64,000 nt of DNA from Alphaproteobacteria bacterium (lineage in GTDB: Bacteria > Pseudomonadota > Alphaproteobacteria > GCA-2746255): the NCBI GenBank assembly GCA_965249135.1, contig OZ252220.1:672001-736000 (forward strand), read 5' to 3'. Positions 34,150 through 56,523 of the stretch are shown piece by piece. How positions within the stretch are numbered: position 1 is the first letter of the stretch; the number at the start of each line of letters is the position of its first letter. The position numbers were made by a program, and so were the translations under genes. A model generated the notes under the pieces. It was not told the origin of the DNA and did no database searches. It saw only the letters and a program-made list of their open reading frames with translations.

Positions 34150-34159
34150 GGAGCGAGCC

Positions 34160-38167: not shown

Positions 38168-38421
38168 CGGTTGATCTCCCGCAAGCAGGCGCCGTAGCCG
38201 AGGACGTCGACGAGGCTGTCGAGATGCCTGGGGTCGTGGGCGAGCCGCGCCATCTTGAGGTCCATCAGGCAGACCGCCACCTGGGCCGCCGTGACCCGGA
38301 TCCCGAGCACCTGCGACCAGCGGGCGGCGACATGCTCGAACAGATCCTCGGGCGCGCCGTAATCGGCCCGGCGCTTGTCGACGGCGCCGGCGGCGTGCTG
38401 GAGCAGCATGGCGCCGTTCAT
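38164..38421 (-). CDS. DUF6378-like phage protein
   Basis: RRADYG.P...VAARWS...MDLKMAR...DSLVDVLGY. Confidence 0.75.
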   Translation of the reverse strand: MNGAMLLQHAAGAVDKRRADYGAPEDLFEHVAARWSQVLGIRVTAAQVAVCLMDLKMARLAHDPRHLDSLVDVLGYGACLREINR

Positions 38422-39029
38422 CGCGCACCCGCCCGGCTCTCGATCGCCCACAGCAGCAGCGCGATGGCGTCGGCCTCGTTGTCGTCGGCAGGGTCAAACC
38501 CGCGCTCGCGGACGGCGGCGATTACCGCCTGCTTGGACGCGTTGCCCTTGCCGGTGACGTGACACTTGATGGTGCCGACCGGCACGCCCTGATAGGGAAT
38601 GGAATGGTGCTCGCACCAGGCGGTCGCATGCGCCAGGAAGCCGCCGTAGATCTGAGAAGCGCTGGTGCCGGCGTGGCGGCGGACCTCCTCGAGGCAGACC
38701 GCATCGATGCCGCCGGCCGTATTCTTGATCTCGGTCAGCCAGCCCTTGAAGCGCAGGAATCGCATCCCGCCGCCGGAGAACCGGTCCGGGCGGAACGACA
38801 TGGTGCCACTGGTGATGGCGCCGTCTCCGTCGCGGAGCGCCCAGCCGGTCGCGGTGCCGAGATCGAGGGCGAGCACGGCGCCGGGACCGGACACGCCGGA
38901 GTCGGTGGCGGCCGGCACCGGGGGTTCGGCCACCGGGCGGGCAATACCGGCATTGCCGCCGTGCCGGGCAGCCGGCAGCCGGGCGCGGTGTTCAAGCGGC
39001 GGTTTCTTGGGCAGAGTTACATGAGCCAT
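38418..39029 (-). CDS. Phage RuvC-like Holliday junction resolvase
   Basis: VLALDLGTATGWA, EEVRRH, GKGNASK, DDNEADA. Confidence 0.85.
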   Translation of the reverse strand: MAHVTLPKKPPLEHRARLPAARHGGNAGIARPVAEPPVPAATDSGVSGPGAVLALDLGTATGWALRDGDGAITSGTMSFRPDRFSGGGMRFLRFKGWLTEIKNTAGGIDAVCLEEVRRHAGTSASQIYGGFLAHATAWCEHHSIPYQGVPVGTIKCHVTGKGNASKQAVIAAVRERGFDPADDNEADAIALLLWAIESRAGAR

Positions 39030-39059
39030 GGTGATCTCCTTTGATCGGGGTTGTCGTGG

Positions 39060-40163
39060 TCAGGGTGGCGGCGGGGAACTGCCAGGAACGCCGCCGCCAC
39101 CCGCTCTTGCGCGTTGGGTGGCGCAACACGCGGTGGACCGGTCGGGGCGGCGGCGCCGCGGACCGGCCAGAACGGGCGATTTGGGAGGGGGTGAACGTGT
39201 ATCCGGGGTTTGATTTTCACGATGCGAGCCCGGTGAACGTGGGGAACGTTGATCCGGCCCTTGATTTTCTATCGTGAGCCGCCAGCGCTGCGCCTGATGA
39301 CGCACGCCGGCCACCCTGACGCATATCTTGACCTCACCGATCGCGAAGACACGGTCGCGCAACCGGCCCAGCGCCCGGCCGAGACGGGTGCGCTGCGAGC
39401 GCTCTCCGCCGTCGCCGAGCGGCAGCGGCGGCTCGCAGGCGAGCGCGAGCTCGTGCAGCTCGGCCGTGCCGACCTCGGCGGTGCCGTGGCGTTCCCACCC
39501 CGCGGCCACGAAGGCGCGCCAGACCGCGCCCTCGGCGTCGGCCGCCTCGTACATCTCGTCGAGATTGGCGAGGAAGCCGGGATAGCCGGTGCGGGTCTCC
39601 CAATGGGTGAGATCGGGATGGAACCTGAGTTCGGCCGTGTCGGGCACGGCGAGGCCGCGGGCCTCGAGGTAGGTCTCAGCCGAGCTGTCGGCGAGCGCCC
39701 GGCATCCCTTGATGATGATCTCGATCTCGCGGCGGGCGTTCTCCTTGCTGCGCGTCTCCGGCGCGGTCCCGGATGCGGACCCGGCGCCGTCCTTCGGCGG
39801 GGCGGGCGCTGCGGTGCGTACCGGTGCGGTGCCGACGATCTCGGCGGCATAGTCGAACAGCGCCCGGCCCGTGAGACCGGTCGCGTGCTCGAGCGTGCTC
39901 AAGGGTCCGCCGCCCTCGCCGGTGTCGAAGTCGATCCAGTCGCCGGCGTGCGCGCCCTTGAGCGCGATGACGCAGGAGCCGTTCTTGCGCGGCGTATCAC
40001 CGCCGATGTTGGCGAGCCGCCACTCGTCGCCGTTGCGCCTGCCGTTCGGAAAATGTCGCGGCACCCAGAGCTCGGCGGAATCGCGGAGCCGGCTGACGAT
40101 CTCGTCGAGATCGTGGCGGGCGGGTTCGAGGCCGAACGGGCGGGTGTCGTTGAGGTCGATCAC
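39060..40163 (-). pseudogene. Phage primase-like replication protein with probable internal deletion
   Basis: N-terminal GDWIDFDTGEGG and YLEARGL...LRFHP, then GYP-GFLANLDEMYE with no Toprim EG/DxD motifs. Confidence 0.6.
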
Positions 40164-40453
40164 TGGAACGCCTTCTCCGGGACTACGCCGGTGAAGAAGC
40201 TCCTGTCCTCGCGGATCGCCATGAAGCCGAAGCCGGGCCCGCGATGATGGGGGTCTGCTCCGATCCACAGGTTGGCCTCGGGGTCATGGACCCAGCGCCC
40301 GGGCCCGAAGAGGCGGTCGAGAAAGCGCTCCATGGGCATGGCGCAAAGACGCTCTTCAATTGCGCGCACCTCCTCGACGGAGATGCCCGCTTCGCGGGCC
40401 CATAGAGGATGTTCTTCCTCGCGGTCCGGCGGACCGTGCCGATCGTTACTCAT
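40160..40453 (-). CDS. Hypothetical protein
   Basis: RBS GGAGGAG before ATG 40453; stop overlaps the next start. Confidence 0.5.
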   Translation of the reverse strand: MSNDRHGPPDREEEHPLWAREAGISVEEVRAIEERLCAMPMERFLDRLFGPGRWVHDPEANLWIGADPHHRGPGFGFMAIREDRSFFTGVVPEKAFQ

Positions 40454-40470
40454 GTTCTCCTCCAGCCCTT

Positions 40471-41772
40471 TCAATCGAGAATGACCAGGCCGCGCTCGGC
40501 GCGCGTGATCGCGGTGTAGAGCTAGCGGGCGCGGTCCTCGGCGGTGCGCCCGAGACCGTCGTCGAACACGATGACGTTGGGCCAAGCGGAGCCCTGCGAT
40601 TTGTGACAGGTGACGGCCCAGCCCCAGACCGCCTCGATCAGGCCGCGCCGGGTCCAGTGGTCGCGGCGGCCGCGGTCGGGAGCGGCCTTGATGTGGTCGT
40701 CGAAATGCCCCTTGTAGATAAAGTGCCGTTGGGGCTTGTCGGCGCCGCCGCCGACGATGTCCCCGTCCTCGGTGCGGATGGTGGCGGAGAAGGAGGTCTC
40801 GTTCTCGTCGCGCACCTCGCCGAGGGTGAGGAACATGCCGTTGACGACGCCGAGGTCGTTGCGGTTCCTGAGACAGATGATCTTCTCGGACGTCCCGCTG
40901 CGGACCTCGCCCGTGGGATAGATGCTCTCGTAGCCGGCGGCGCGCTTCATGGCGTTGTTGAGCTGCAGGCGGGTAGCGTTCCTGCCGCAGATCACCTGGC
41001 CGCCGCGCAGCATCTGCTCGGGGCCGACATCGCTCCGCCGCATCTTCCAGACGAAGGCGTCGTGCCGGCCGTAGGGGATGGGCCGGCCCTCACGGGCCAT
41101 GGTGGCCAAGCGAATGACGGCGCTGTCGCCGGCCTGGCGGTGGATCTCGGTCAGCATCACGTCGGGCTCGGCCTCGGTGAAGGCGCCCTGGCCCTTGATC
41201 GGCGGCAGTTGGCCGGGATCGCCCAGCACCAGGATCGGCTTGCCGAAGGCCAGCAGATCGCGTGCCATCTCGTCGCCGACCATGGAGACTTCGTCGAGGA
41301 CAATGAGCTTGGCGTCGCGGACGGCGGACTGGTCGTTGAGGACGAAGCGGGGCTTGTGGGCGTCGTCGAGCCGGAGTTCCAGGCTGCGCAACCGGGATTC
41401 CTCCAGCAGCCGCTCGCCGGAGCGGAGGCTCGGCAGCCTCGCCTTGATCCCGGCGATGTCCTTTTTGACCTTCTCGATCTCGGCCTCGGTCGCCTCCGAG
41501 ACGCGGTAAATCAGGCTGTGGATGGTGGAAGCGGGGGTTCCCTTGCGGGTCATCACCAGCGCCGCCTTGCCGGTGTAGGCCACATAGAGCACGCCGTTCG
41601 AGCATTCCTCGAGGCCGAGTTCCTCGATGATGTAGCGGGTAATCGTGCTTTTCCCGCAGCCGGCGTAGCCCCAGATTCGCGCGACTTGCTGCTCCGCGGT
41701 ACGGTGCTGGAACCAGTCCACAACCGTCTTCAGCGCCTGCGTCTGCTGGTCGGAAAGCGTTATCCGGTCCAA
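40471..41772 (-). pseudogene. RecD/Dda-like SF1 helicase with a nonsense mutation
   Basis: GYAGCGKS, LDEVSMV, LGDPGQLPP, TCHKSQGS. TAG at 40522-40524 sits where W is expected before LYTAITRA; TTG start with RBS GAGGAGG. Confidence 0.88.
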
Positions 41773-41904
41773 GGTGTTTCCTCCTCTGTCACGTGCTTCC
41801 AAATCCGACCCTTGGCGATGGCGTAAATCGTCTCCTTCCTGACGCCGTGCAGACGGGCAATGCAGGCGCCACAAAGCCCGACGCCGAGCAGACCCTTGAC
41901 GCGC

Positions 41905-42678
41905 TCATCGATCGACGTCCCAGCAGCGTTTGGCGTATTCGCAGAAACGGCAGAGATAGAAGTCCGCGTTGGCGGCGATGCGCGGCGGCAGCTCGCCGGC
42001 CTCGGCGGCCTGGATCACCTGGACCGCCTTGTCGGAGAGGCCTTGCGCCGCGGCCGCATCGAAGGGCACGGCCTCGTGATAGAGCGCCTGGGTGTCCTTG
42101 TTCATGGCCGTGAACAGCGCGAGGCCGGGCGTCATGTAGGCCATGTAGAACTGCGTCTGCCCGTAATAGACCGGCTTGGACGCACGCAGGCCGCGCTTGA
42201 CGGTGTCGGTCCAGGGCCGGGCATTGAGCGCCTTGTGCTCCCAGAGCGCGGGCCACGCGATCCCGACCTCGGGCCCTGAGACGATGACGCCGTCGATATG
42301 GCCGCGGATGCGCCCGCCGGCGGCCGAGAAGCCGAACTGGCCGCCGTCGCGGCGTTGGGTGCGCAGATCGAAGCCGGCGGCCCGTAGCCACTCGACGGAA
42401 AGCGCCTCGAACTGATGGCCGGCGGCGAACACGCGCAGCAGCGAGCCGTCGAAATCCTGGCCCGGGTCCTTCGGCGTGTGGGTGTACTCGTAGACCAGCT
42501 TGCGCGCGCAGGGCTCGCCGATCCGGCTCGCGCCGAGATAGTCGCGCGGACGCGCCGCGCGCTCCGCCGCCTCGAGCGCGGCATCGATCGCGGCGTTGAT
42601 CTGCCGCCCCGCATCGGTAACGGCGGAGGGGCGCAGATAGACGAAGCCCGAGCCGTGGTTGAGATCGACGATCGTCAT
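41905..42678 (-). CDS. Phage PD-(D/E)XK (Cas4/RecB-like) exonuclease
   Basis: YLGASRIGEPC, GHIDG, WEHK, Q..FYM, CRFCEYAKRC. Confidence 0.85.
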   Translation of the reverse strand: MTIVDLNHGSGFVYLRPSAVTDAGRQINAAIDAALEAAERAARPRDYLGASRIGEPCARKLVYEYTHTPKDPGQDFDGSLLRVFAAGHQFEALSVEWLRAAGFDLRTQRRDGGQFGFSAAGGRIRGHIDGVIVSGPEVGIAWPALWEHKALNARPWTDTVKRGLRASKPVYYGQTQFYMAYMTPGLALFTAMNKDTQALYHEAVPFDAAAAQGLSDKAVQVIQAAEAGELPPRIAANADFYLCRFCEYAKRCWDVDR

Positions 42679-42687
42679 CGTGGCCCC

Positions 42688-42903
42688 TCAAAACGGCAAA
42701 TCGTCGTCGAACGGCTGGTTCTCGGCGGCCTGGCGCTGCATGGAGTCCTGGAAGCCGTCGACACAGGCCTCGATGATTTGATCGATCTCTTCGCCCGTCC
42801 GGTCGTGGAACGGCGCCATGAGGCCGAGTTCGCCCAGCGCCTCGGCGAAGAACCGCCTGGTGTCCTTGATCGCCCGCTTCTCCATCCCGGTCTTATCAAT
42901 CAC
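42688..42903 (-). CDS. DUF6511-like phage protein
   Basis: IDKTGME..AI...EIDQIIEACVDGFQ...DDLPF; an in-frame Cys-rich region (CALC...FCSMRC) lies upstream, so the start is uncertain. Confidence 0.6.
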   Translation of the reverse strand: MIDKTGMEKRAIKDTRRFFAEALGELGLMAPFHDRTGEEIDQIIEACVDGFQDSMQRQAAENQPFDDDLPF

Positions 42904-43276
42904 GCCGTGAGCCCTCCCGGCGAGGGACGCGCCGGCGTCGAGGCAGCGCATCGAGCAGAAGCCGTAATGGGGGTAGCGGTCCCATTGCAGGCGGAGGCAG
43001 AACCCGAAGCCTCTGGCTTCGCGTCCGCAAAGGGCACAGGGCCGGCAGTCATCAAGAGGCGGGCGAGATCGCCGTCCCGCTTCGGGCGCATCCCGGTCCG
43101 CTCCGAGGCCAGCACGATGAACCGCGCAATGGCGTTCGACGCCATCGCTTCGAGCTCGGGCATGGTCAAAGAGCGGATGGGCCGGTGGAGCCTTCCCCGC
43201 GCTTCGAGCCACGCGCCGACGGCTCTTGCGGCTTCGCCGGTGACGTGGGCCTGCCATTCGTCGTCGCGGTCATCAT
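42900..43276 (-). pseudogene. Conserved phage hypothetical protein with a disrupted start
   Basis: DDEWQAHVT.EAARAVGAWLEARG...ELEAMASNAIARFIV is out of frame with the ATGs at ~43273. Confidence 0.45.
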
Positions 43277-43997
43277 CCGTTCAGCCAGTCGGGCCCGGCG
43301 GCGCCGGAGCGGGCGCGGGAGCGGCCTGTGCGGCCGTCTGGGCGGGTGGTGCCGCGGGTGCGGAGGCTGGCGCGGGCTGGGCTTGCGGCTGTTGCCACGC
43401 GGCCTGGGTCTGGGCCGGCGCGGGCGAAGCGGCGCCGGTGCCGCGGGACCGTGACGGCGCCGGCGGCACCGCCTCGCCGTTCATCACCGCCCGCCATTCC
43501 TTCTCGTTCGGCAGCACCGGACGGTCGAGCCGATTGCGGTCCGGGTAGCGTGGATCGTTGTTGGGCTCGACCATGATCCTGGCGACGAACGTGATGCCGT
43601 TCAGATCGGCGAGACCGCGCAGCTGACGCTTCTGCCGGGCCGCCTCGCTCATGTCCTCCGGGTCGAGCGCCAGCGCGCTGTCGATCATGGCGCGGACCAT
43701 GCGCTTGGAGATGTTCCAGCCGATCGAGGCGCCGTTCTCGTCGACCTTGCCGCCGGCGACGGTGAACAGCTGCCAGAATTTTCGGCGCGCATGCGGGCCC
43801 TCGGCCACGGTGAACTCGCAATCGAGCGAGAGCACGTCGCTCCCGGGCGTGTTCGAGGCCTTCAAGAGGCCCTTGTCGTGCTCGCCCTGGCCGTCCACGC
43901 CGCCGGGGCGGACGGTCATGACGACCTTGGCGAAGCTGCCGTCGGGGATGAGATCGGTGCCCTGGTGGGGCTTGACGTCGTTGAAGTTGTAGGTCAT
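43273..43997 (-). CDS. Phage SSB-like (DUF669-like) protein, frameshift in the last codons
   Basis: LDCEFTV.EGPHARRKFW, Pro/Ala-rich tail; the terminal PDWLNG is shifted to another frame. Confidence 0.7.
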
Positions 43998-44012
43998 CGC
44001 GATTCTCCTTTC

Positions 44013-44867
44013 TCAGCTGGGTTGCGCCGGCGTCGTGGACGCGGACGCCCGGTTGATCTTGTCGAGCAGTGCGGCGAGGTCGGGCGGCTCGGTGATGTCG
44101 AGGCGGCCCGAGCGGTCCTTGGCCGGCAGGCGATAAGGATTGCCGGAGCGGCAGACCAGGCGGCGGGTCTCGCCGCTCTCCGGCGCATATCGCCAGCCTT
44201 CACCTTCGGCCTCGAACAGGCCCATGGAGATCACCTGATCGACGATGCCGGGGAGCTCGCGGGCGGCCTTGCCGCCCTCCATCTGCGGCTGCCAGTGCTC
44301 GCGGTTGAACTCGTCGGTGACGCACTCGAGGATGCCGACGAAGACCGCGGTCCGGCCCGGCGCGTGCTGGGGGTGCTTGAGGAGCCCGATGACCTCGCGG
44401 GCGAGCACTCCATAGGCGCCGCGGAGATCGGGCTTGCCGGTCTTGTCGGAGACCGATTCGGGCCGGGTCCTGGCCCATGCCATGGCCTGGCGGGTGAGAT
44501 CGGTGATCGAATCGACGAAGACGATGCGTTTGCCGGCAACCACCGGCACGAGCTCGGCGTAGACCTGGGCGACATGGCGGTAATGGCCCTCGGAGAAGAA
44601 GCTGTTGGGATCGGCCGCCGGATCGACGCCGCCGACGAGGCAGGCGATATCGAGCGCGTCGGCAAAGGTGCGCACCGGGATGCTCATGCCCGGCCAGTCC
44701 TGGACCGACTTCATGCCGGCCTCGAGATCGATGCACAGCGTCTCGTCCGGCGGCAGGGTGCGGAGCAGCGAGGTCTTGCCGACGCCGGAGGGGCCGAACA
44801 GCGCGACGGTGGTCTTGCCCCGGGCCTCGGCGAGGCGCTCGTCGGCGGTGATGATGCGCAGGCTCAT
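44013..44867 (-). CDS. Phage AAA ATPase (AAA_24/Sak4-like)
   Basis: GPSGVGKTS, IDLEAG, FVDSIT, AKDRSGRL. Confidence 0.85.
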   Translation of the reverse strand: MSLRIITADERLAEARGKTTVALFGPSGVGKTSLLRTLPPDETLCIDLEAGMKSVQDWPGMSIPVRTFADALDIACLVGGVDPAADPNSFFSEGHYRHVAQVYAELVPVVAGKRIVFVDSITDLTRQAMAWARTRPESVSDKTGKPDLRGAYGVLAREVIGLLKHPQHAPGRTAVFVGILECVTDEFNREHWQPQMEGGKAARELPGIVDQVISMGLFEAEGEGWRYAPESGETRRLVCRSGNPYRLPAKDRSGRLDITEPPDLAALLDKINRASASTTPAQPS

Positions 44868-45184
44868 GATCTGCCTCCCCGGTTACGCGGCGGCGCCCGC
44901 CGGGCGCAGATCGCGATGTAGCTGTAGTCGGCGTCGCCGTGGCGGCGCTGAACCAGATGAACGAGGCCCTGCCCGGAGGCCCGCATCGCGGCCGTGGCGA
45001 GGCGGTCGAGCGCGGCCCGCGTCTCCGCATCCGCCGCGTCCGGCCGCTTCTCGCGGTCAGCGATGAGATGGCCCCGGTGATGGGCGATGCGGCTTCCCGC
45101 ATGGGCCGCCCCGAGCCAGGCGGCGAAGTCGGCTGCGTCGAGGACGGGCTGCGGTGCGGCCGGGCGCGGCAGGACGGCGTTCAT
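44864..45184 (-). CDS. Conserved phage hypothetical protein
   Basis: FAAWLGAA..G..IAHHRGHL..DR...GLVHLVQRR...YSYIA; ATGA overlaps at both ends. Confidence 0.65.
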   Translation of the reverse strand: MNAVLPRPAAPQPVLDAADFAAWLGAAHAGSRIAHHRGHLIADREKRPDAADAETRAALDRLATAAMRASGQGLVHLVQRRHGDADYSYIAICARRAPPRNRGGRS

Positions 45185-45372
45185 GCCGCGGTCTCCTCGG
45201 CCGCCACCTCGCTCCTGTAGACGGCGATCAGCGGGATGCCGTCGCTGGTGGTGCCAGCATCCTCCAGGTGATAGTCGTTGCCGGGCTCCAGGACCTCGGC
45301 CAGCTCCCAGCGCCGGAACAGCCCCGGAATGCGGTAGAGTTCGCTTGGCAGCAGGGGGATCGGAAGGGTCAT
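45181..45372 (-). CDS. Hypothetical protein, first gene of the leftward operon
   Basis: 63 aa, coupled to the next gene, RBS GGAG. Confidence 0.55.
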   Translation of the reverse strand: MTLPIPLLPSELYRIPGLFRRWELAEVLEPGNDYHLEDAGTTSDGIPLIAVYRSEVAAEETAA

Positions 45373-45420
45373 GGATGGCTGTCTCCGCTCTCCCGGCGCC
45401 GGCTGGTCCGGCGCTTCTAT

Positions 45421-45455
45421 TGGTTAAAAGCGACTTTCGGCGGCGGATTGGGACA
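45421..45455 (-). promoter_or_regulatory. Element-specific promoter-like motif, copy A (faces the replication operon)
   Basis: Minus strand TGTCCCAATCCGCCGCCGAAAGTCGCTTTTAACCA; near-identical to 47877-47911. Confidence 0.7.
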
Positions 45456-45585
45456 TCGCGGGACGAAAAACATTTCGGGCCCGTGCCCGAACCGGACCGG
45501 GAGGCCGCGGCATGTGCCGGTTTCCGACGTCTTGGAGTGCTACTGGGACGCGCGATTGGGACTCGACTAGGCCTCCCCCGTATGA

Positions 45586-45600
45586 GAACATTATGAGAAC
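45586..45600. promoter_or_regulatory. Alphaproteobacterial LexA (SOS) box
   Basis: GAAC-ATTATGA-GAAC, immediately upstream of TTGACG(45608)-N18-TATGAT(45632). Confidence 0.7.
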
Positions 45601-45693
45601 ATAACCGTTGACGGGGATGCTGGAAGGCGACTATGATAATTCTCATATTCAGGCAAACGCGCAAATGCGTTAACACGAGACGGGACAGAATCG

Positions 45694-45978
45694 ATGGGGT
45701 TCGGCGGCTATCTCAGGAAGAAGCGCGAGGAACGCGAGCTCACCCTCGTCGAGGTCGCCGAGCGGGTCGGCATCTCGGTCGCCTATCTCTCGCGCATCGA
45801 GCGCGAGCGCGAGAACACGCCCAAGGACGAGCTCATTCAGAAGGTCTGCAAGGCGTTGGACCTCGATGCGGACGAGGCCTTCGCGGCGGCGCGGCGCCTG
45901 CCGCCGGACCTGCGCCCACATGCGCACAGCGTCGTGCGGCTCTATCGCCGGCTCGGCAAGGGGGAGTTGAGCCTATGA
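45694..45978 (+). CDS. XRE family HTH regulator (ImmR-like)
   Basis: FGGYLRKKREERELTLVEVAERVGISVAYLSRIER. Confidence 0.92.
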   Translation: MGFGGYLRKKREERELTLVEVAERVGISVAYLSRIERERENTPKDELIQKVCKALDLDADEAFAAARRLPPDLRPHAHSVVRLYRRLGKGELSL

Positions 45979-46768
45979 CCACACCCCGGATTTTCTACCG
46001 CCATGCGCGGGCGACGGCGAAGCCGCACTATGTGAGCCGGTCCGACGTCGCTCGGGTGGCGTCGGCTGTGCGCAGCCAGCTCGGCTACCGGGACCATCAC
46101 GCCAGGATCGACTACCGCGAGATCGCCGAGCGCATCTCGCGTCTCGGGGTGAACGGCATCGATGTCGCCGTCGATTGGGATCTGGAGGGGACGGTCGAGG
46201 ACGAGACCGGAGCGCCGGCGCTCGGCTCCTGCGAGTACGACCTGGCGGTGCCGGGCCATGCGCTGATCTACGTCAACCGCCAGGAGATCGGCGAGCGCAG
46301 CTATCTCGGGCGCAGCACGGTGCTGCACGAGCTCGGCCACGCGGTCTTCGATGCCCCGGCCCGGGTCCTCGCCAACCGACAGGGGCGGCTCGATCTCGGC
46401 GACGACAGCCGCGGCAGCCGGGCCTTCCGTCTGGTGACGCCCGGCCCCGAGCATCTCGGCAACAGCCGTACGGCGGACGGATCGATGGACTGGGCGGAGT
46501 TCCGGGCCAACGAGTTCATGGGTCGTTCCTGGCGCCGCTGACGGCAATTCGCCGGACGCTGCGCCGATTGTGTCAGCGCTTCGAGGTGCCGCTGGTCGAG
46601 GAGAGATCCCGGACCGGCCGGGCGCGGATCAAGGCCGACTTCACCGGCCGGCACGCCTGCAAGCTCGAGACGGCGGTCTTCGAGCTTGCCGAGGACTTCG
46701 GGCTGTCGCCCGCCTTCATCGCGGTGCGGCTCCGAAAATACGGCCTGGTCCGGGGGCAGGGCTTGTAG
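45975..46768 (+). pseudogene. ImmA/IrrE family metallopeptidase, frameshift at ~46522
   Basis: RSTVLHELGH (HEXXH) and EFRANEFMG, then SFLAP...FGLSPAFIAVRLRKYGL in another frame. Confidence 0.85.
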
Positions 46769-46838
46769 CGGCGCGAGGAATAGGGGGGAGAACGGGGAGC
46801 CTCGCTCCCCTCTCTTTGGCCCGGGAGTTCAACAGTTT

Positions 46839-47045
46839 ATGCAAACTAATGAACAATGGCGGTGCAACAGATGCCGCAAGCTCCTGGGGATCATCCGCGG
46901 CGGACGGCTGCATCTGCGGTTCGGACGCGGGAATGAGTATGTCATCGCCTTCCCGGCCCTCGGGCTGTGCCGGCGCTGCCTGACCCTGAACACCGCCACA
47001 GGGCCGCCGGACCCGCCGTCCGAGGAGCCGATACGATACCGCTGA
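46839..47045 (+). CDS. Small zinc-ribbon protein, Mu Com-like
   Basis: WRCNRCRKLLG...CRRCLTLN, matching the Com pattern RC..C.KLL...C.RC...N. Confidence 0.7.
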   Translation: MQTNEQWRCNRCRKLLGIIRGGRLHLRFGRGNEYVIAFPALGLCRRCLTLNTATGPPDPPSEEPIRYR

Positions 47046-47151
47046 GCGGTTTAGGTCCTTCCTGATCATTCGTTCATTCACCGAGAGGCGCGCGACGCCC
47101 TGACCCCGGCCTTCATGAGGCGCCAGACGCCCGGCCGAGAGGCCGGCGTCC

Positions 47152-47864
47152 ATGCGCTCTCTCTGGTTGTCGCTCCACGAGCGGCTGGTGCACAGCACCG
47201 AAGACCTCACCTTCCAACGACGATCCAGACCCTGGCACGCTCCGATCCCGTGCTCGCGCCCTTCTCCGATCCAGGCGCGCTGCTCGCGTTGCTGCACGGC
47301 CGTGACGCGGAGCCGGAAGAGAAGAACCGCATCCTCACCGCGCTGGTCGCGGAAGCCCAGACGGGCGGCTCCTCCGGCGAGACCGCTCAGACCATGCTCT
47401 GGCTCGCGCTCTGGCCCGGCCTCGATGCCGTCCACCGGCGGCTGTCGCGGTTCTACCGGAGCGCGCCCGAGGAGTTGGTCTCGGAGATCGCCGGGCGGTT
47501 CACGACCGGGATCGCCCGTCTCGATCGCTCGCGCGTCCGCCGCATCGCGGCGACGCTGATCCGCAATGTCGAGCGCGACATCCGCGCCCGGCCCAGCCCG
47601 ATCCCGGCGGACGAGCCGATGGAGGAGGCCGCGCCCTTGTCGGTCCTGGGTCTGCCCGATGGCGTGGACCCGGAGCTGGCGACGGAACTCCTGGGCGAGC
47701 GTCTCCGCGCCTGGATCGGCGATGACGCGGACATCGTCCTCGCCATCGCGGTCGTCGGCGAGACCTCGGACGAGGTTGCGGCCCGCCTCGGCACGACCGC
47801 CTCGGCCGTGCGCAAGCGCTACCGGCGCGCCCTCGCCCGGTTGCGGACCGCGTGGGAGGAATAA
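47152..47864 (+). pseudogene. Sigma-70/ECF-like protein, frameshift at ~47224
   Basis: LWLALWPGLDAV...IAATLIRN.ERD and a region-4 HTH EVAARLGTTASAVRKRYRRAL; the N-terminus MRSLWLSLHERL is in another frame. Confidence 0.7.
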
Positions 47865-47876
47865 TTCGGGGCGGCG

Positions 47877-47911
47877 TGTCCCAATCCGCCGCCAAAAGTC
47901 GCTTTTACCAA
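47877..47911 (+). promoter_or_regulatory. Element-specific promoter-like motif, copy B (faces the recombination operon)
   Basis: TGTCCCAATCCGCCGCCAAAAGTCGCTTTTACCAA, 40 bp upstream of ATG 47952. Confidence 0.7.
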
Positions 47912-47951
47912 GTAGGGGCCGGCCTCGCCGGTTGCGCCAAGGCGGCACGCG

Positions 47952-48161
47952 ATGACCCACAACGCACTCGATCCCGACCGCATGAGCACCGCCGAGCGGC
48001 TCGATGAGCTCGCCCGCATCCTGGCCGCGGGACTGGTGCGTCTCCGAAACCGGTGCTTCTCTGGAAAACGTCATGAGTCCAACGCGTTGAGAGAAGGTTC
48101 GCTGGACTTCCCGGCCCCGCAGAGCGTTCATGACGCACCTCGAACGGAGAACCCGTCATGA
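47952..48161 (+). CDS. Small conserved protein preceding DUF2924
   Basis: DPDRMSTAERLDELARILAAGLVRL; ATGA overlap with the next gene. Confidence 0.7.
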   Translation: MTHNALDPDRMSTAERLDELARILAAGLVRLRNRCFSGKRHESNALREGSLDFPAPQSVHDAPRTENPS

Positions 48162-48601
48162 CCGAACTCATCGCCCGGATCGCGGCCCTCAAGACGACGC
48201 CGACGCCGGACCTCCAGGCGCAATGGCGCGAGCTCTTCGAAAGCGAGCCGCCCAGGCGGAACCGCGGATACCTCGAGAGCCGCATCGCCTACCGCATCCA
48301 GGAGCTCGAGCACGGCGGGCTCTCGCCCGCCACCATCGCCCGCCTCGAGGCGCTCGGCGAGACCCTCGACGGCGGTGACGCGACGGTCCGCAAGCGCCGC
48401 GTCGACGGCCGGCCGGTCACCGGCACCCGCCTCATCCGCGAATACCAGGGTGTCGAGCACTGCATTACGGTTATGGCTGACGGCTTCGAATACCAGGGCC
48501 GGCCCTACAAATCGCTCTCGGCCGTCGCCCGCGCCATCACCGGCACCCGCTGGAACGGGCCGCTGTTCTTCGGACTCCGGAACTCTGGAGGCGCCCGATG
48601 A
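48158..48601 (+). CDS. DUF2924 domain protein
   Basis: RIAYRIQELEHGGL, GTRLIREYQG, YKSLSAVARAITGTRWNGPLFFGL. Confidence 0.92.
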   Translation: MTELIARIAALKTTPTPDLQAQWRELFESEPPRRNRGYLESRIAYRIQELEHGGLSPATIARLEALGETLDGGDATVRKRRVDGRPVTGTRLIREYQGVEHCITVMADGFEYQGRPYKSLSAVARAITGTRWNGPLFFGLRNSGGAR

Positions 48602-49910
48602 GCAAGTCCCCGCCACGTAAGTTCCGCTGCGCGGTCTATACCCGCAAATCGAGCGAGGAAGGGCTCGACATGGCGTTCAATTCCCTCGACGCCCAGCGCG
48701 AGGCATGCGAGGCCTATATCGCGAGCCAGAAGCCCGAGGGCTGGGTGGCGATGGATGACCGCTACGACGACGGCGGCATCTCCGGCGCCACCCTCGAGCG
48801 GCTGGCGCTTGTCCGGCTCCTCGCCGACATCGAGGCCGGCCGCGTCGACATCGTGGTGGTCTACAAGATCGACCGCCTGAGCCGCTCGCTCATGGATTTC
48901 GCGAAGCTGATCGAGGTGTTCGAGACCCACGGCGTGACCTTCGTCTCGATCACCCAGCAGTTCAACACCACCACGCCCATGGGCCGGCTCACCCTCAACA
49001 TCCTGCTCTCCTTCGCCCAGTTCGAGCGCGAGGTCACCGCCGAGCGCATCCGCGACAAGTTCGCCGCCAGCCGCCGCAAGGGCATGTGGATGGGCGGCAA
49101 CCCGCCACTCGGCTACGACGTCAAGGACCGCAAGCTGGTGGTGAATACGGAGGAGGCCGCGGTGGTGCGCATGATATTCGAGCGCTTCACGGCCGTCGGC
49201 TCCGCCACCCAGCTCGCGAGGACCCTGCGGGCCGAGGGCGTCGTCACCAAGCGCGGCCGGCCCATCGACAAGGGGACCCTCTACCGGCTCATCAACAACC
49301 GGGTCTATATCGGCGAGGCCGTTCACAAGGGCCGGAGTTACCCCGGGGAGCACGAGGCCATCGTCCCGCGCGTCCTCTGGGACAAGGTCCACGGCATCCT
49401 GAAGGAGAGCCCGCGCCTGCGCGCCAATATCACCCGGGCGCAGACCCCGGCGCTGCTCAAGGGCCTCGTCTTCGGCGCCGGCGGCCGTGCCATGACGCCC
49501 ACCCATACCCGCAAACGCGGCCGGTTCTACCGCTACTACGTCGCCGCTGGGCTCGCCAAGGGCGAGATCCCGGCAGGCGTTGTGCGCCGCGTGTCCGCTG
49601 CCGAGATCGAGGCCGCCGCCGTCCATGAGCTCCGCACCCTGCTGCGCGCGCCGGAGGTCGTCGTCGCCACCTGGCGCGCGGCCCGGGAACGGGACGGCGC
49701 GCTCACCGAGACCGAGGTTCGCGATGCCCTGCAGGATCTCGTCCGCTGTGGGAGGAGCTGTTCCCCGCCGAGCAGGCCCGCCTGGTCCAGCTCCTCGTCC
49801 GGCGCGTCGAGGTCCACCCGGAGGGGTTGAAGCTGCATCTCCGCGTCGACGGGCTCCGCAGCCCGGTCGCCGACATGCGAGCGGAACAGGACCAGAGGAG
49901 GGCCGCCTGA
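48598..49910 (+). pseudogene. Large serine recombinase, frameshift at ~49741
   Basis: CAVYTRKS (catalytic Ser), YKIDRLSRS, FAQFERE, recombinase domain; the C-terminus PLWEELFPAEQARLVQLL is in another frame. Confidence 0.9.
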
Positions 49911-50315
49911 TGACCGAGGCCCGGTTGAGCGACGACGGCGCCACCCTTACCGTCTGGATCCCCATGGCCTTCACGCTCCGGGGCGGGCGCAGGCTGGCGG
50001 TCTCGCCCGACGGCGCGCCGGCCTGGGCCGGGCCTTCGAGCGGGGTCGGATACCCTGGTCAAGGCGCTGGCCCGCGCCTTCCGCTGGCGCAGGCTCCTGG
50101 AGACCGGCGTCCACGGCACCGTCGACGAGATCGCCCGCGCCGAGGGGATCAACGACTCCTGCGTGAGCCGCATCCTGCGCCTCGCCCTGCCCGCCCCCGA
50201 CAGGGTCGGGACCATCCTCGACGGACGGCAGCCGCCCGCGTTCACCCTGGTGCGGCTGATGAAGCCGTTTCCGGTGGAATGGGAACGGCAGCGCGGGTGG
50301 ATTCAGGACTGGTGA
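49910..50315 (+). pseudogene. Recombinase-associated HTH protein, frameshifted
   Basis: LTVWIPM...RGGRR in one frame, TLVKALARAFRWRRLLETG...PVEWERQR in another. Confidence 0.7.
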
Positions 50316-50427
50316 CGCTGCTCCGCCGCTTTGCCTGGGTGAGATAGAAGCGGAGCGTCAGGAATGCGGCGATTACAACGCGAGCAATCTCAGGCGCTTC
50401 CGGCATGACCGGGTCTGGCGGTCCGGT

Positions 50428-53400
50428 CTAGAACGTCACCCTGAGGCCGGCATTGAAGCCATGAGCGGCGGCCCCGTCGCCATACCGGCCCTTGTAGGCC
50501 AGCCCGAGAAAGGCATTGGCCGAAAGGCCGGCCTCGACGCCGAACTCGGTGACCAGGGAATCCTCGGCGGTCGGAGCGCCGGTGACCGTGAAGGCGGTGG
50601 TGCTGCCCCGCAGCGTGGCGGTCGACGACGGGTCGGTGTCGCCGAAGGCATACCGCCAGCCCGCCATGCCGCGGAGATGGATCATGTCATCCACCTCTAT
50701 CGCGCCGCGCAGACCGAGCGTCGTGAACGTCGTGTTGTTGGTATCCGACGAGGCCGCCAGGGCCGCATCGCCGCCGCTTTCGCTGAAGCCGTCCGTGGCG
50801 AGATTGGTATGGGACACGCCGGCAAAAGGCTCCAGCATCAACGCGCCGGCCTGCACCTCGTATCCGGCTTCGGCAAAGAGCTGCCAGCTCCTGGCGTCGT
50901 AGCCGGCCGACAGGCGCTCCGGGGAATAGTTGGTGAAGCTGACCGTCCGGCTGGTGTCCACGGCGTGCCAGTTATGGATCGCTCCGAAGCCGAGACCCCA
51001 AGCGCCGGCCTCGGCGCCGCCATAAAGACCGGCGGACCATGTGTCGACCGAAGCAGAGGACAACCGCGCACGCTGGCTCACATCCGTCCGGCTGTAGCCG
51101 CCGAGGACACCGAGGCGCCAGTGGTCGCCCAACGCACGGTCGGCGCCGAACAGGACGCCGCGCAGGTCCGTCTCCATCCGCGCCGTGCCCGTGCCGGGCG
51201 TGGCATCGGTCTCGCCCCAGGCACCGTAGCCGGTGATCCACGAGCCGCTATCGCGGTCGGCCAGCGACGACGGATTGCCGAAGGCCGCCGTCGATGTCCG
51301 TGCGTCCGATGTCTGTGCGTCCGATGTCTGTGCGTCCGATGTCTGTGCGCCGGGATCGCCGAAGCGCCCGTTCATGCGGCTTTTGACGGCCGCGACCTGT
51401 CTTTGGCCCGTGTCCATCAACGCCCCCTTGAGGGACGCATGCGCCTCGCCCGAAAGCGCATCGGAGGCGGCCCGTACTTCCTCCGCCGTGTTCAGGCCCA
51501 GAATAGCCTGTGTGATTGAGTTGTCTTCTTCCAGGCTGTCGAGTTCCAGGCTGTCGAGGGCGTTGGCCGCCGCCCGCTGGTTGGCCGATCCGGTAACACC
51601 GGTAACCTCGACGATAGTGATGCTGTTTCTTGTGACAGCCAATTCCACATAGTCGGCCCCGTCGCCGACGTCGCCGTCGTCGAGATAGTCCAGCTCATAG
51701 TCCATGAACAATGAGCCGCCGATGACTTCATCGAATTTGTCTTTGATGGTGGAAATGCGATCGGCGTCAAGGATCGTATAGGTGCCCTCATAAGCGCCCA
51801 CGACTCTCACCGTGCCGCCAAGGCGGGCTAAGCCGGTGACGGTGAGCAGGTCGCTACTACCGTTCGGGCCGGTCGTGACGGTAAAAGTGCTGCCTTGCTC
51901 GCCCAAGAAAATGCCCGTCAGAGCGGTCTCCTGCACGGCGCTCGCACCGCCCGGCGACAAATCGCCCCAATTGGTGAAGCGATTGTTGAGACTGAGAATC
52001 ACCGCGGTGCCGGAATTGAACGTTGCGCCCGCCATGTTGTTGAAGGAATTGGCCCCTGCACCCAGATCGATGGTGCCGGGGGCCGTCAACGTGCCCCAAT
52101 TGTCGATTGTCTCGTCGCCGGAGCCCCCCAGCACGTCGTCATATTCTACTAAGACACCGTTTGATCGAATCCTTTCGCCGCCGCGGACCGTCACAGGGCC
52201 CCTGATCGTCAGCGTATTGGTCGCACCATTACTAATTTCGACGCCTGCGCCCTTGGCACTGGTGATGGTCCCGCCATGCAGCGTGATGCTGATGGCGCCA
52301 TTGGATTGTGCATAGATCCCGGTGCTGGTATCGCCCGAGGCGGTGATGTCGCCCGTCACGTCAATCTTAACAACAGCAGAGCTGTTAGGATTATCGGTAC
52401 CGCTATCGTTATCGGAGTATGCATAGATCCCCGAGCTGTTACCGCCTGAGGTGGTGATGTCGCCCGTAAAGTTAACCGTCACAGCGCCATTGCCATAGGA
52501 TAGTGCATAGATCCCCTCGCTCTCCTCGCCCGAGGTGGTGATAGTGCTGCCGTTCTTCATTGTAACCGTCACATCGCCTTTGCCATAGGATTCTGCATAG
52601 ATCCCCTCGCTCTCCTCGCCCGAGGTGGTGATATCGCCCGTCACTACCGTAATATCAATATTGCCGGCGCTGTTCTCGTCCTCGATATACGCAGAAATCC
52701 CTCTGCTTTTCTTTTTCGTGGTGGTGATATCGCCCTCCAGGTCAACCGTCACATCGCCGTCGGAAGCTGCAGAGATCCCGCCGCTGCTTTCGCCATAGGT
52801 GGTGATATCGCCCGTCACATTAACCGTCACATCGCCGTTTTTATCGGAATTTACATAGATCCCATCGCTGCCCTCGTCCGAGGTGGTGATATCGCCCGTC
52901 ATTGTGACCGTCACATCGCCGTCGCCCCCGGAATCTGCAGAGATCCCCTCGCTGTCCTCGCCCGAGGTCTTGATATTGCCCGTCACTGTAACCGTCACAT
53001 CGCCGTCGCCATCGGATTTTGCTGCGATTCCGCTGCTCTGCTCCTCGCCCAAGGTGTTGATATTACCATCCACTGTAACCATCACGTCGCCGTCGCCATC
53101 GGATTTTGCAACGATTCCGTCGGCGTTAATGCCCTCGGTGATGATATTGCTGCCCTTCTTCATGTTAACCGTCACAGCGCCATCGGAATTTGCATAGATC
53201 CCACGGCTCCTTTGCTTGGCTTTGATATTGCCCCTAAATGTAACCGTCACATCGCCGTCTTCGCCGCCACCGCCACCCGACTTTGCATAGATCCCTGCGC
53301 TGCTGGTAGTACCGAGCCCGATAAGCATGTCGGGATCGCCCTCGGTTTCGATATCGCCCGTCACATTAACCGTCACATCGCCGTCGTCCTCGGATCTTGC

Positions 53401-53931
53401 ATAGACCCCTTCGCTGCACTCCTGGTTATCACTTATGTGGCAAATACCCTTGGCGGTGATCTTGCCCGTCACATTAACCGTCACATCGCCAGCGGATCTT
53501 GCAGAGATTCCTCTGGCGTTAGTGCCCTTGGTGGTGATGCCGTTGGCACCGGTATCGACGGTGAGGGTGATGTCGGTATTACCGTAGGTGTCAGTGTCTT
53601 CGTTATGGGTATCAAAATTGATCCCGCTTGTCCCTGCCTCCGGAGCGATATCGCCGTTCAGAGTATTGACTTTGAGCGTGTTGTAGGTGCCGTGCGGACT
53701 ATTGACCTGCACACCACCGGACAGGTCGCCGGTACAGGTCACCGTCGTGCCGCTGTCGGTGCACTCCGGGGATCCCGGTGTGAACGATTGCGCCTGCGCA
53801 GCGAGCCCCCCGCCGAAAAGCATCGCACCCGCAGCAGCCCACAACAACAGCGCATTGCGCAATGTGCGGGAACGCGAGACGGTCACGGCACCGCCGGCGC
53901 CGCGGCCTTCGCAGTCGCTCTCAGGGTTCAT
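50428..53931 (-). CDS. Autotransporter (type V secretion) with repetitive beta-helical passenger
   Basis: Signal peptide (GLAAQA), about ten GDVTV...GDITT.G..S.GI.A repeats, C-terminal beta-barrel ending FNAGLRVTF. Start uncertain (53931-54036). Confidence 0.92.
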   Translation of the reverse strand: MNPESDCEGRGAGGAVTVSRSRTLRNALLLWAAAGAMLFGGGLAAQAQSFTPGSPECTDSGTTVTCTGDLSGGVQVNSPHGTYNTLKVNTLNGDIAPEAGTSGINFDTHNEDTDTYGNTDITLTVDTGANGITTKGTNARGISARSAGDVTVNVTGKITAKGICHISDNQECSEGVYARSEDDGDVTVNVTGDIETEGDPDMLIGLGTTSSAGIYAKSGGGGGEDGDVTVTFRGNIKAKQRSRGIYANSDGAVTVNMKKGSNIITEGINADGIVAKSDGDGDVMVTVDGNINTLGEEQSSGIAAKSDGDGDVTVTVTGNIKTSGEDSEGISADSGGDGDVTVTMTGDITTSDEGSDGIYVNSDKNGDVTVNVTGDITTYGESSGGISAASDGDVTVDLEGDITTTKKKSRGISAYIEDENSAGNIDITVVTGDITTSGEESEGIYAESYGKGDVTVTMKNGSTITTSGEESEGIYALSYGNGAVTVNFTGDITTSGGNSSGIYAYSDNDSGTDNPNSSAVVKIDVTGDITASGDTSTGIYAQSNGAISITLHGGTITSAKGAGVEISNGATNTLTIRGPVTVRGGERIRSNGVLVEYDDVLGGSGDETIDNWGTLTAPGTIDLGAGANSFNNMAGATFNSGTAVILSLNNRFTNWGDLSPGGASAVQETALTGIFLGEQGSTFTVTTGPNGSSDLLTVTGLARLGGTVRVVGAYEGTYTILDADRISTIKDKFDEVIGGSLFMDYELDYLDDGDVGDGADYVELAVTRNSITIVEVTGVTGSANQRAAANALDSLELDSLEEDNSITQAILGLNTAEEVRAASDALSGEAHASLKGALMDTGQRQVAAVKSRMNGRFGDPGAQTSDAQTSDAQTSDARTSTAAFGNPSSLADRDSGSWITGYGAWGETDATPGTGTARMETDLRGVLFGADRALGDHWRLGVLGGYSRTDVSQRARLSSASVDTWSAGLYGGAEAGAWGLGFGAIHNWHAVDTSRTVSFTNYSPERLSAGYDARSWQLFAEAGYEVQAGALMLEPFAGVSHTNLATDGFSESGGDAALAASSDTNNTTFTTLGLRGAIEVDDMIHLRGMAGWRYAFGDTDPSSTATLRGSTTAFTVTGAPTAEDSLVTEFGVEAGLSANAFLGLAYKGRYGDGAAAHGFNAGLRVTF
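51293..51348. repeat. 15-bp tandem repeat encoding (AQTSD)n in the autotransporter linker
   Basis: GATGTCTGTGCGTCC, ~3.7 copies. Confidence 0.9.
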
Positions 53932-54060
53932 CGCGCAACGCGTATTTCGCATGAAAGGCTCATCCCCAAAACATCCCTTACCCCGCGGTTGGCACGTCGC
54001 TGCCTCGCCTAAATCCACCTGATCCCAGGTTAACAACCGCCGAATCTTCCTGCAAGAGGC

Positions 54061-55186
54061 TGTCCTCGTTCAGGACATATGAGACGGCTGGGCATCGTTG
54101 GCTGCTCGGTGAGCAAGGTACTCGGCGGGTGTTTGTCCGCCAAGGGCCTGATGCGGCCGGAAGGTGTTGAACTCGTTGGCGAAAGCGTCGAGCCATCGGT
54201 TGGTGTCCTCGAGGTTGTCGGTGTCGAGTTGCCAGCAGGCGTAGAACTCGTAGCGCCAAGCCCCGTTGTTGCGCTCGACATGTCCGTTGAGTTCGGGCGA
54301 TCGGGGCGGCAACTCGAAGAGCTCGATGTCGCGCCGCTGACACTCGCTCTCGAAGGCGGCCTTGAACTCGGCGCCGCCGTCGACCTGGATGGCAGTGATG
54401 GGGAAGGGCATGTCGGCTTGCAGCTTGTCGAGGAAGCGCTTGGCGTTGTGAGCCGTGGCGCGCCGGTAGGCTCGGGCACAGGTCCATTTGGCCACCGGAT
54501 CGCAGGCGGTGAACTGTTTGACGGCGGGGTGCCCGGCACGGGGCGTGAGGGTGAGAGTATCGACCTGGACGATCTCGCCGGGCCGCGTGGGTCTGCGGCC
54601 CTTGGGCAATCGCCTGGCATGGGGGCGGTGCGCCGTGCCGCGCCGGGGGCGCGGTGCCTGAGGATGGGCACGGGCAGGACCTGGCCCGGACCACCAGCAT
54701 CTTCAGGATGCGCCCGACGGTGCTTTCGCTCACCGTGTATCCCTGGCGGCGCAGGATGACGGCGAGCTTGGCCTTGCCCCACATGGGGTAGTCGTGGCGC
54801 AGCTCCTTGACCGCCGCGACCAGCGCCGGCGGCCAGTCCGGCCGACGCAGGCGCCGGGGCCGGCGCGATCCCGGCTCGGGACGGTTCCGCCACCGATAGA
54901 GGGTGGACCGCGGCACGCCGACGACCTCGGCCGCCCGATCGGCGGTCAAGCCGCCGGGTTTGGCTTTGCGCCAGCGGTGCACCGCGTCGCGTCTGATCGA
55001 CGCTTCGCGATCTGCGGACTGCGCGTCGATCAGACGAGACGCGGTCTTGGCGTTTCGGATAACGTGACACGGCAGGCTTCGGACCTGCATGGGGGCCTCC
55101 TTCGGCTGGTGGTTGCACCATCACAGCCTCGGAGACCCCCGCCCCCACATCAAGGGCCGCGTCCCACATCTGTCTGAACTAGGTCA
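54061..55186 (-). mobile_element. IS481 family insertion sequence with a frameshifted transposase
   Basis: N-terminal HTH (GVPRSTLYRW) and rve core (VQVD, IQVDGGAEF, NGHVER) in different frames; imperfect IRs TGTCCTCGTTCAG and TGACCTAGTTCAG; flanks GAGGC/GAGAC. Confidence 0.88.
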
Positions 55187-55303
55187 GAGACAAGCTCCGG
55201 GCGTTCGAAGGCCTCGGCCAAGTGTTCTCGAACGGCGTCGAGCGCCGGCGGAGGCGGCCCACCACGTATCGCAAGCGCGAGAATTCAAAGTGACCCACTA
55301 CCG

Positions 55304-56513: not shown

Positions 56514-56523
56514 CTCATTGAAT

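Follow-up and report, generated by a model that had tools for sequence, protein, structure and literature searches.

Does a sigma factor encoded within a phage-derived element read the two promoters that point away from its own regulatory block? The question is raised by a 64,000-nucleotide window of contig OZ252220.1 (positions 672,001 to 736,000 of the forward strand; assembly GCA_965249135.1, Alphaproteobacteria bacterium), in which positions 45421 to 47911 hold a regulatory block with a sigma-like gene, framed by two near-identical copies of a short motif. A first-pass annotation of this DNA had taken the arrangement for a prophage switch in which a private sigma factor co-activates excision and replication, in place of a CI/Cro pair. 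Comparison with related loci makes it probable, in our view, that a phage sigma factor and its outward-facing private promoters form the regulatory core of this temperate-phage family. The proposed co-activation agrees with the layout of the locus and with the place and geometry of the motif across 160 loci, while the part of the proposal that makes sigma a substitute for CI/Cro is not supported.

The motif pair and the sigma-like gene between its copies

The features on which the argument turns are the following.
45426 to 45455, minus strand: left motif copy, TGTCCC-N17-CGCTTT, putative sigma-dependent promoter of the replication/recombination operon
47152 to 47864, plus strand: gene for a divergent sigma factor with a probable sigma2 and a sigma4 region, whose frame shifts by one base near 47222 in the assembly
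47877 to 47906, plus strand: right motif copy, 13 nucleotides past the sigma stop codon, putative sigma-dependent promoter of the small69-DUF2924-recombinase operon

The inverted pair reported at first pass is readily recovered: TGTCCCAATCCGCCGCCRAAAGTCGCTTTT has exactly two matches in the window, 45426-45455 on the minus strand and 47877-47906 on the plus strand, and none in 100 shuffles. In its full form the 30-nucleotide motif reads TGTCCCAATCCGCCGCC(G/A)AAAGTCGCTTTT, and both copies point outward from the block. They agree at 29 of 30 positions, followed by a fainter similarity of about 9 nucleotides with one indel; the near-identity thus spans 30 nucleotides and not the 35 base pairs given earlier, and the gap between TGTCCC and CGCTTT measures 17 nucleotides instead of the reported 16 (an alternative count is TGTCCCA-N16-CGCT). 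When up to three mismatches were allowed, the whole genome of 2,118,282 bases returned the same two copies only, and the backward control returned 0. Both copies do stand shortly before operon starts, as had been claimed, with 53 nucleotides between the end of the left copy and the ATG at 45372 (minus strand) of a 63-codon open reading frame (ORF), and 45 nucleotides between the end of the right copy and the ATG at 47952 (plus strand) of a 69-codon ORF.

Related loci were found by sigma alignment. The genome set comprised 205 sigma relatives in one-genome-per-species contigs, of which 80 were kept, and the viral set 267 relatives in viral contigs, of which 80 were likewise kept, giving 160 loci; at least 472 loci matched across the two collections. 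The relaxed pattern TGTCC-N18-SSSBTT yielded 166 matches in the genome set against 16 in the backward control, and 173 against 15 in the viral set. A proximal copy, lying 4-14 nucleotides past the sigma stop codon in 74 of the 80 genome loci and present in 78 of the 80 viral ones, was found in 152 of 160 loci overall; absence of the motif from related elements, which the first-pass annotation had named as grounds for giving up its proposal, is not what we see. The opposite-strand copy occurs 1.5-6.5 kb upstream in 59 of the 80 genome loci (62 of the 80 reach 6 kb upstream), and of the 29 viral loci with sufficient length, 26 show a distal copy. The 80 genome loci hold 19 further sites at +1.3 to +1.6 kb, between the Sak4-like and phrog_2300 genes, a position that is vacant in the window; a third copy is carried by L031, L034, L035, L041, L045, L052, L053 and others.

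Over the 160 loci the consensus is TGTCCC-N17-SGCKTT, and a sequence logo shows two near-invariant blocks with a variable spacer. Within single elements, the 17-nucleotide spacers of the two copies share just 2-13 bases (56 loci). The -10 variant nevertheless agrees between both copies in 50 of these 56 loci (44 with GGCTTT, 6 with CGCGTT), counts that exceed the number of independent events, the loci being interrelated. The CGCGTT variant is restricted to one clade of the sigma tree, which is the kind of co-variation between motif and sigma that the first-pass annotation had suggested looking for. Because only the blocks and their distance are conserved while the spacer is free, the pattern is, at the level of sequence, what would be expected of a bipartite promoter whose recognition factor evolves along with it, and not of a recombination site. 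The host genome contains one sigma copy and four strict matches to the motif; two of these are the window's pair, and the other two lie in running frames with no gene start nearby.

Some smaller observations concern the surroundings of the motif. A terminator-like hairpin with a T run (45474-45491, minus strand) is situated immediately upstream of the left putative promoter, on its own strand, and a 9-nucleotide repeat of the -35 region (GATTGGGAC) occurs at 45554-45562, 108 nucleotides into the block. By eye, a candidate hairpin can be drawn in the leaders 3' of both putative promoters, in the window's clade only. Near-identical promoter and leader sequences are found in genomes labelled Devosiaceae, Paracoccaceae, Roseobacteraceae, Rhizobiaceae and Stappiaceae (L035, L053, L062, L063, L071-L074, L077, L079, L080 and others), and one locus each is labelled Woesearchaeota and Burkholderiaceae. 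Such near-identity across families suggests either a recent spread of one phage type over wide hosts or binning artefacts in some metagenome-assembled genomes.

The gene between the two copies was correctly singled out as sigma-like, and the frameshift mentioned for it is present in the assembly. The reading frame begins at the ATG at 47152 and, near 47222, gives way to that of the ORF at 47115-47864. Homologues are 237-250 amino acids long and begin with MRSLW..., and the window encodes the same start at 47152, in a frame different from that of the long ORF. Sigma region 4 is detected above the Pfam cut-offs (PF08281, 27.8 bits against 25.7; PF04545, 24.3 against 24.1), and TIGR02937, the NCBIfam model of the extracytoplasmic function (ECF) superfamily, gives a weak alignment over residues 92-245 in two homologues. 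The homologue P0002, 92% identical to the window's protein, was modelled with AlphaFold2 at a pLDDT (predicted local distance difference test) score of 88.9; the model is helical up to residue 146 and again from 174, the linker at 152-162 being of low confidence, and it has no region 3. In superpositions, its residues 1-151 fit regions 1.2-2 of sigmaS and sigmaA (Z 8.0-8.5; root-mean-square deviation 2.9-3.4 A over 105-114 residues) and its residues 165-237 fit region 4 of SigR and SigD (Z 7.8-8.1, 1.9-2.8 A, 26-31% identity), Z values of about 8 being in a range common among helical proteins.

The alignment of the family also retains PEELVSEI and N-x3-D-x2-R, which we take to be typical ECF region 2 motifs. 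The C-terminus falls within sigma4 (residue 237 of 237 in the model), and the extension of this protein is N-terminal, and helical. On the basis of the model, we call the window's protein a divergent ECF-like sigma factor composed of a probable sigma2 and of sigma4 without sigma3; we write "ECF-like", and do not file it as an ECF member, because its TIGR02937 score is under the cut-off. When P0002 was compared by tblastn with 50,697 deposited phage records, no sigma homologue was found, and a search of the literature, in which supplements were outside the scope, found no description of this sigma family or its motif.

Genes and leader upstream of the sigma gene

All features between the two repeats lie on the plus strand. 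Those that precede the sigma gene are listed here.
45581 to 45647, plus strand: sigma-70-like promoter TTGACG-18-TATGAT (45608-45637) with three copies of TATGAGAA, probable operators
45694 to 45978, plus strand: gene for an XRE-family helix-turn-helix repressor of 94 amino acids (HTH_3, E 2.2e-14)
45975 to 46768, plus strand: gene for an ImmA/IrrE-like metalloprotease (HELGH), whose frame shifts by one base near 46523 in the assembly
46794 to 46810, plus strand: hairpin resembling a terminator, its tail rich in T, between the protease-like and zinc-ribbon genes
46839 to 47045, plus strand: gene for a Com-like zinc-ribbon protein of 68 amino acids (CxxC...CxxC), directly upstream of sigma in relatives
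47083 to 47151, plus strand: highly conserved sigma leader, predicted to form hairpins, a GNRA loop and either of two competing pairings

The presence of an XRE repressor gene, of three TATGAGAA copies and of an ImmA/IrrE-like gene in the block speaks against the earlier view that a private sigma acts here rather than a CI/Cro pair. The TATGAGAA copies flank the sigma-70-like promoter, two as direct repeats and one inverted. HELGH is found in the translated orthologues of the relatives L003 and L005, and the window's DNA encodes the same motif at 46331-46345, with the XRE gene directly upstream. The intact L003 and L005 orthologues score 19.1 and 19.4 bits for Peptidase_M78, under the cut-off of 22, and a Pfam scan of the two pieces of the window's own protease-like gene gave no Peptidase_M78 match. 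Since the repressor gene and the TATGAGAA copies occur in the block, it looks, from sequence, as if a CI-like repressor with putative operators precedes sigma, and as if sigma were the output stage of the switch and not its replacement. Most relatives are without the XRE/ImmA pair and have instead a single ORF of 720-820 amino acids, placed between the distal putative promoter and the zinc-ribbon gene (for example L035:7304-9508, L023:7152-9626, L017:7363-9573 and L044:7333-9507). Pfam assigned no family to the large ORFs of L035 and L023; we regard the ORF as a candidate immunity or sensor protein.

The zinc-ribbon gene is a more constant companion of sigma. It was found directly upstream of the sigma gene in 64 of the 80 genome loci by tblastn, and an ORF search gave 58 distinct sequences. 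The four cysteines are invariant in 37 zinc-ribbon sequences, and the gene ends about 100 nucleotides before the sigma start codon. Matches to Zn_ribbon_Com (PF10122) are sub-threshold, in 4 of 10 proteins, the best reaching 18.9 bits against a cut-off of 22.9; the same search with the window's own zinc-ribbon protein gave no match, and a profile search of the PDB with the zinc-ribbon alignment returned generic zinc fingers only (best E 0.017).

Between this gene and sigma, the roughly 70 nucleotides before the sigma start are strongly conserved, with 81% mean identity over 50 distinct sequences (alignment A3), when the sigma proteins themselves are about 40% identical. RNAalifold folds the leader alignment into three hairpins. 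The leader segment GACGCC can pair with an upstream GGCGC, and over the whole three-hairpin structure 98.6% of cells are paired; it can also pair with a GGCGTC beside the start codon, forming a longer stem capped by a GNRA loop, with 95.1% paired over the whole alternative structure. Slid controls gave 19-48% of cells paired, and palindromic DNA sites could imitate part of the pairing signal. All three leader segments change together in two sequences, covariation events being few, and a search of Rfam over 45300-48100 with E up to 1 gave no match. Taken together, the conserved leader and the zinc-ribbon protein suggest, with modest confidence, a Com-type translational control of sigma.

The proposed switch and its rivals

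On either side of the block the window carries the genes that the switch would serve.
39060 to 40268, minus strand: primase-like DUF7146 gene
40522 to 41874, minus strand: helicase of superfamily 1 (SF1)
41905 to 42678, minus strand: Cas4-type exonuclease
43281 to 43997, minus strand: phrog_2300 protein
44013 to 44867, minus strand: Sak4-like AAA_24 ATPase (replication/recombination genes together, 39060 to 44867)
45181 to 45372, minus strand: small63, first gene past the left motif, which follows the sigma gene in most relatives
47952 to 48161, plus strand: small69, first gene past the right motif
48158 to 48601, plus strand: DUF2924 protein (E 2.7e-51)
48598 to 49883, plus strand: large serine recombinase, its final 47 or so residues in another frame from about 49740

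The minus-strand genes left of the block also include three small phage-type genes. The recombinase has the domains PF00239 (E 2e-38) and PF07508 (E 8.4e-18), with Zn_ribbon_recom at 19.9, under its cut-off of 25.3.

In the mechanism that we propose, the XRE repressor would occupy the operators around the sigma-70-type promoter until, upon induction, the ImmA/IrrE-like protease removes it. Translation of sigma would then be gated by the Com-like zinc-ribbon protein and by the structured leader, which can sequester the region by the sigma start codon. The phage sigma would steer the host RNA polymerase to the private promoter TGTCCC(R)-N16/17-SGC(T/G)TT. One outward promoter would serve small63, the Sak4-like ATPase, the exonuclease, the helicase and the primase-like gene, for replication and recombination, and the other small69, DUF2924 and the serine recombinase, for excision or integration. 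A more far-reaching version, which we put forward tentatively and would not yet bet on, is that a large family of temperate alphaproteobacterial phages induces via its own orthogonal sigma: a clade-variable repressor module would control a conserved cassette of zinc ribbon, leader and sigma, the zinc-ribbon protein would open an RNA switch that conceals the sigma start codon, sigma would fire the divergent TGTCCCR-N16-SGCKTT promoters for excision and replication, and the cassette, its two promoters being of one kind, could flip without functional loss, as in the lineage of the window.

A number of observations weigh against this reading. Besides the unremarkable Z values, a Pfam scan of the window's sigma gave no region 2 match, and three family members score 17.7-19.7 bits for TIGR02937, far below the cut-off of 42.9. 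The top rows of a Foldseek search against the PDB are sigma factors or sigma-bearing polymerase complexes, at weak E values of 0.02-0.3, and no match to the sigma model was obtained at E <= 0.001. The -10 block SGCKTT differs from the CGTC usual for ECF promoters. The zinc-ribbon protein, moreover, matches sigma in its degree of conservation, and the factor that binds the motif could be this protein. All loci were gathered via the sigma gene, which leaves the association of motif and sigma with one negative control, a second element in the same genome that is described below. In the assembly, the sigma, ImmA-like and recombinase genes have one frame change each, no terminase, portal or capsid gene was seen among the ORFs scanned between 29 and 54 kb, and none of the runs on record as RNA contains the region. 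Given the broken frames and a neighbourhood that lacks structural genes, the switch may be non-functional in this genome.

The alternative that survives best follows from these last points: the module seen here could be a dead remnant whose repeats no longer function, a serious contender that we nevertheless hold to be the less probable state of affairs. Both the three frame breaks and the lack of terminase, portal and capsid genes favour it. Both motif copies, on the other hand, are intact, and contigs from sequencing runs tell a different story about the frames. Four sequencing runs of one sample contain 0.43 to 0.56 of the sequence words (0.05-0.06 for runs X5-X7), and in each of the four, contigs compared over 44800-48600 have one extra base at 47222/47223 and one after 46523, which keep the sigma and protease frames open; the recombinase break near 49740 lies outside that stretch. 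Some of these contigs differ elsewhere too and may stem from sister strains, and the frame breaks may accordingly be assembly errors or strain variants.

As for the element as a whole, because no structural gene of the three kinds was seen among the ORFs scanned, we read it, from its gene content, as a prophage remnant without structural genes that keeps the regulatory core of a temperate alphaproteobacterial phage family. The first-pass idea of a prophage switch is strongly supported by comparison in so far as a sigma-like gene with two outward putative promoters recurs in 160 loci, and is weakened for this copy by its frame breaks and missing structural genes. In Defluviicoccus vanus, the locus is followed downstream by genes for a primase, a primase/helicase, a ParB-methyltransferase, a small terminase, a portal and a head protease; PF05065 capsid matches in five relatives' genomes could not be assigned to the sigma loci and were discarded, and the D. 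vanus annotation was used instead.

The window's G+C content at 32-50 kb exceeds that of the flanks. At the possible left edge of the island, a thiamine-pyrophosphate enzyme gene seems shortened at about 32.1 kb, with N-terminal and middle domains only (31217-34540), and the same interval contains a phage-type gene resembling phosphoadenosine-phosphosulfate (PAPS) reductase, followed by a HigB-type toxin and its partner. Beyond the recombinase, 50428-56616 holds a gene for a 1202-amino-acid autotransporter, an rve-type transposase fragment and a tyrosine integrase adjoining tRNA-Ser (56524-56616), and looks like a second, separate island beside the phage remnant. The second related element mentioned above, which is phage-like, lies 1.39 Mb off, at 2.09-2.115 Mb of the genome; it carries diverged Sak4, phrog_2300 and Cas4 genes, and is without a sigma homologue or a motif match. 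It shares with the window three segments at 99.9% identity (37363-39107, 32121-33665 and 49596-51000), two inverted and one direct, which could drive large rearrangements or mislead assembly.

It is unlikely that the motif is a site for another conserved factor of the block, in which case the candidate would be the Com-like zinc-ribbon protein, binding DNA to activate or repress, and the sigma-like protein would do something else. The zinc-ribbon gene does precede sigma in the 64 genome loci counted above, a co-occurrence that cannot separate the two candidates. What argues for sigma is the geometry of the site, which is non-palindromic and made of two short blocks with a fixed 17-nucleotide gap and a free spacer, 45-53 nucleotides before the starts; a single 68-residue zinc ribbon is ill-suited to two blocks 17 nucleotides apart. 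The -35 block, moreover, resembles the published ECF41 signature TGTCACA-n16-CGTC (PMC3426412).

The first-pass annotation had itself offered a further alternative, that the repeats are inversion sites. An inversion did take place. In 74 of the 80 genome loci and 79 of the 80 viral loci, sigma is followed by small63 and the replication genes. Among the genome loci, 65 of 80 have the DUF2924 gene on the upstream side and on the other strand, for the most part together with small69 and the recombinase; only in the window and in its nearest relative, L003, is sigma followed by small69-DUF2924. Aligned with L005, the window matches forward over 45555-47909 and in reverse over 37461-45455 and 47877-49855. 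The block between the motifs (45456-47876) is thus inverted relative to 153 of 160 relatives, with the breakpoints inside the motifs. Because the motif copies are nearly identical in this clade (29/30 in the window, 26/30 in L005, 25/29 in L003), the inversion most likely arose by recombination between them. Both operons retain the same kind of putative promoter, so the logic of the arrangement is unchanged by the flip.

As history, then, the inversion sites are real; as a programmed and reversible switch, worked by the serine recombinase or by homologous recombination and altering the operon behind sigma, they are in our judgement highly improbable. The near-identity of the repeats and the position of the breakpoints would suit such a switch. 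In other clades, the copies share the two short blocks only and cannot be recombination partners, the orientation is constant in the 74 genome and 79 viral loci just cited, and the same promoter-operon logic holds in either orientation. Reads had been proposed as a check for inversion; contigs from the four runs of one sample extend across the two junctions oriented as in the window, and no joint that changes strand was listed, a weak point, as contigs drop rare variants and rare forms are invisible in them. The least probable rival is that a host ECF sigma reads the promoters and the phage protein just modulates it: the -35 block TGTC(C/A)C is like that of ECF41, a group found in Alphaproteobacteria (PMC3426412), but the two other strict matches in the host genome precede no gene start, the motif accompanies the phage sigma across hosts labelled Rhodospirillaceae, Paracoccaceae, Roseobacteraceae, Devosiaceae, Rhizobiaceae and others, and the -10 variant tracks the clade of the phage sigma.

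Relation to known systems

Phage-encoded sigma factors are known mainly from lytic phages and from the late genes of PBSX. If the phage sigma does read its two flanking promoters, a lysogeny switch would here have a sigma factor as its early output, acting on excision and replication, in a family found across many alphaproteobacterial genera and in viral metagenome contigs. Comparison of the loci yields a sigma factor and promoter that can be tested as a pair, the promoter being defined by two short blocks at a fixed distance and occurring in natural variants; such a pair could become an orthogonal expression tool in Alphaproteobacteria. The leader and the zinc-ribbon gene would represent a second possible case of Com-type translational control, here of a transcription factor. 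Several cultured, non-pathogenic lysogens occur among the loci, including Defluviicoccus vanus Ben 114, Devosia enhydra ATCC 23634, Pleomorphomonas koreensis DSM 23070 and Rubellimicrobium thermophilum DSM 16684, which opens the hypothesis to direct testing.

Sigma factors of lytic phages, such as phiEco32 gp36, T4 gp55 and SPO1 gp28, redirect the host RNA polymerase to phage promoters in timed cascades; the window's sigma differs from these in its location, in the block that governs lysogeny of a temperate phage, with its own putative targets diverging on either side. In ICEBs1, the gene for the XRE-family repressor ImmR is followed by that for ImmA, a HEXXH metalloprotease that inactivates the repressor upon induction. 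The window similarly has an XRE gene followed by a gene for a HEXXH-type (HELGH) metalloprotease-like protein, whereas the protease of the window's family is sub-threshold for Peptidase_M78 and most relatives have the 720-820-residue ORF in its place. The Com-mom system of phage Mu has a parallel in the small zinc-finger gene directly upstream of the gene that it would control, whose structured leader can sequester the start region. Here, however, the matches to Zn_ribbon_Com are sub-threshold (4 of 10), RNA binding is putative, and the proposed target is a sigma factor and not a DNA-modification enzyme.

For ECF41, the promoter signature is TGTCACA-n16-CGTC, and the proteins are described as having a C-terminal regulatory (SnoaL-like) extension and acting on adjacent host genes (PMC3426412). 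The ECF-type -35/-10 first claimed for the motif holds up for the -35 block, TGTC(A/C)C, and for the spacing, 16 nucleotides when counted from a 7-nucleotide -35, both of which resemble that signature. It fits less well at the -10, SGC(T/G)TT in place of CGTC, and the window's sigma is without such a C-terminal extension and has an N-terminal one instead. L005 and one copy in L003 read TGTCAC at the -35.

The closest parallel is the Xre-Xpf pair of PBSX in Bacillus subtilis, where the XRE-type repressor Xre lies upstream of Xpf and Xpf drives the late genes for structure and lysis. Xpf is listed as a sigma2, sigma4 group IV protein (PMC10141391). In both systems, as far as their descriptions can be likened, a repressor stands upstream of an element-encoded positive control factor with sigma4 and, probably so in the window, sigma2, which activates, or in the window would activate, operons of the element after induction. 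The protein family, the host phylum and the promoter differ, and the putative targets in the window are not late genes but the flanking replication and recombinase operons.

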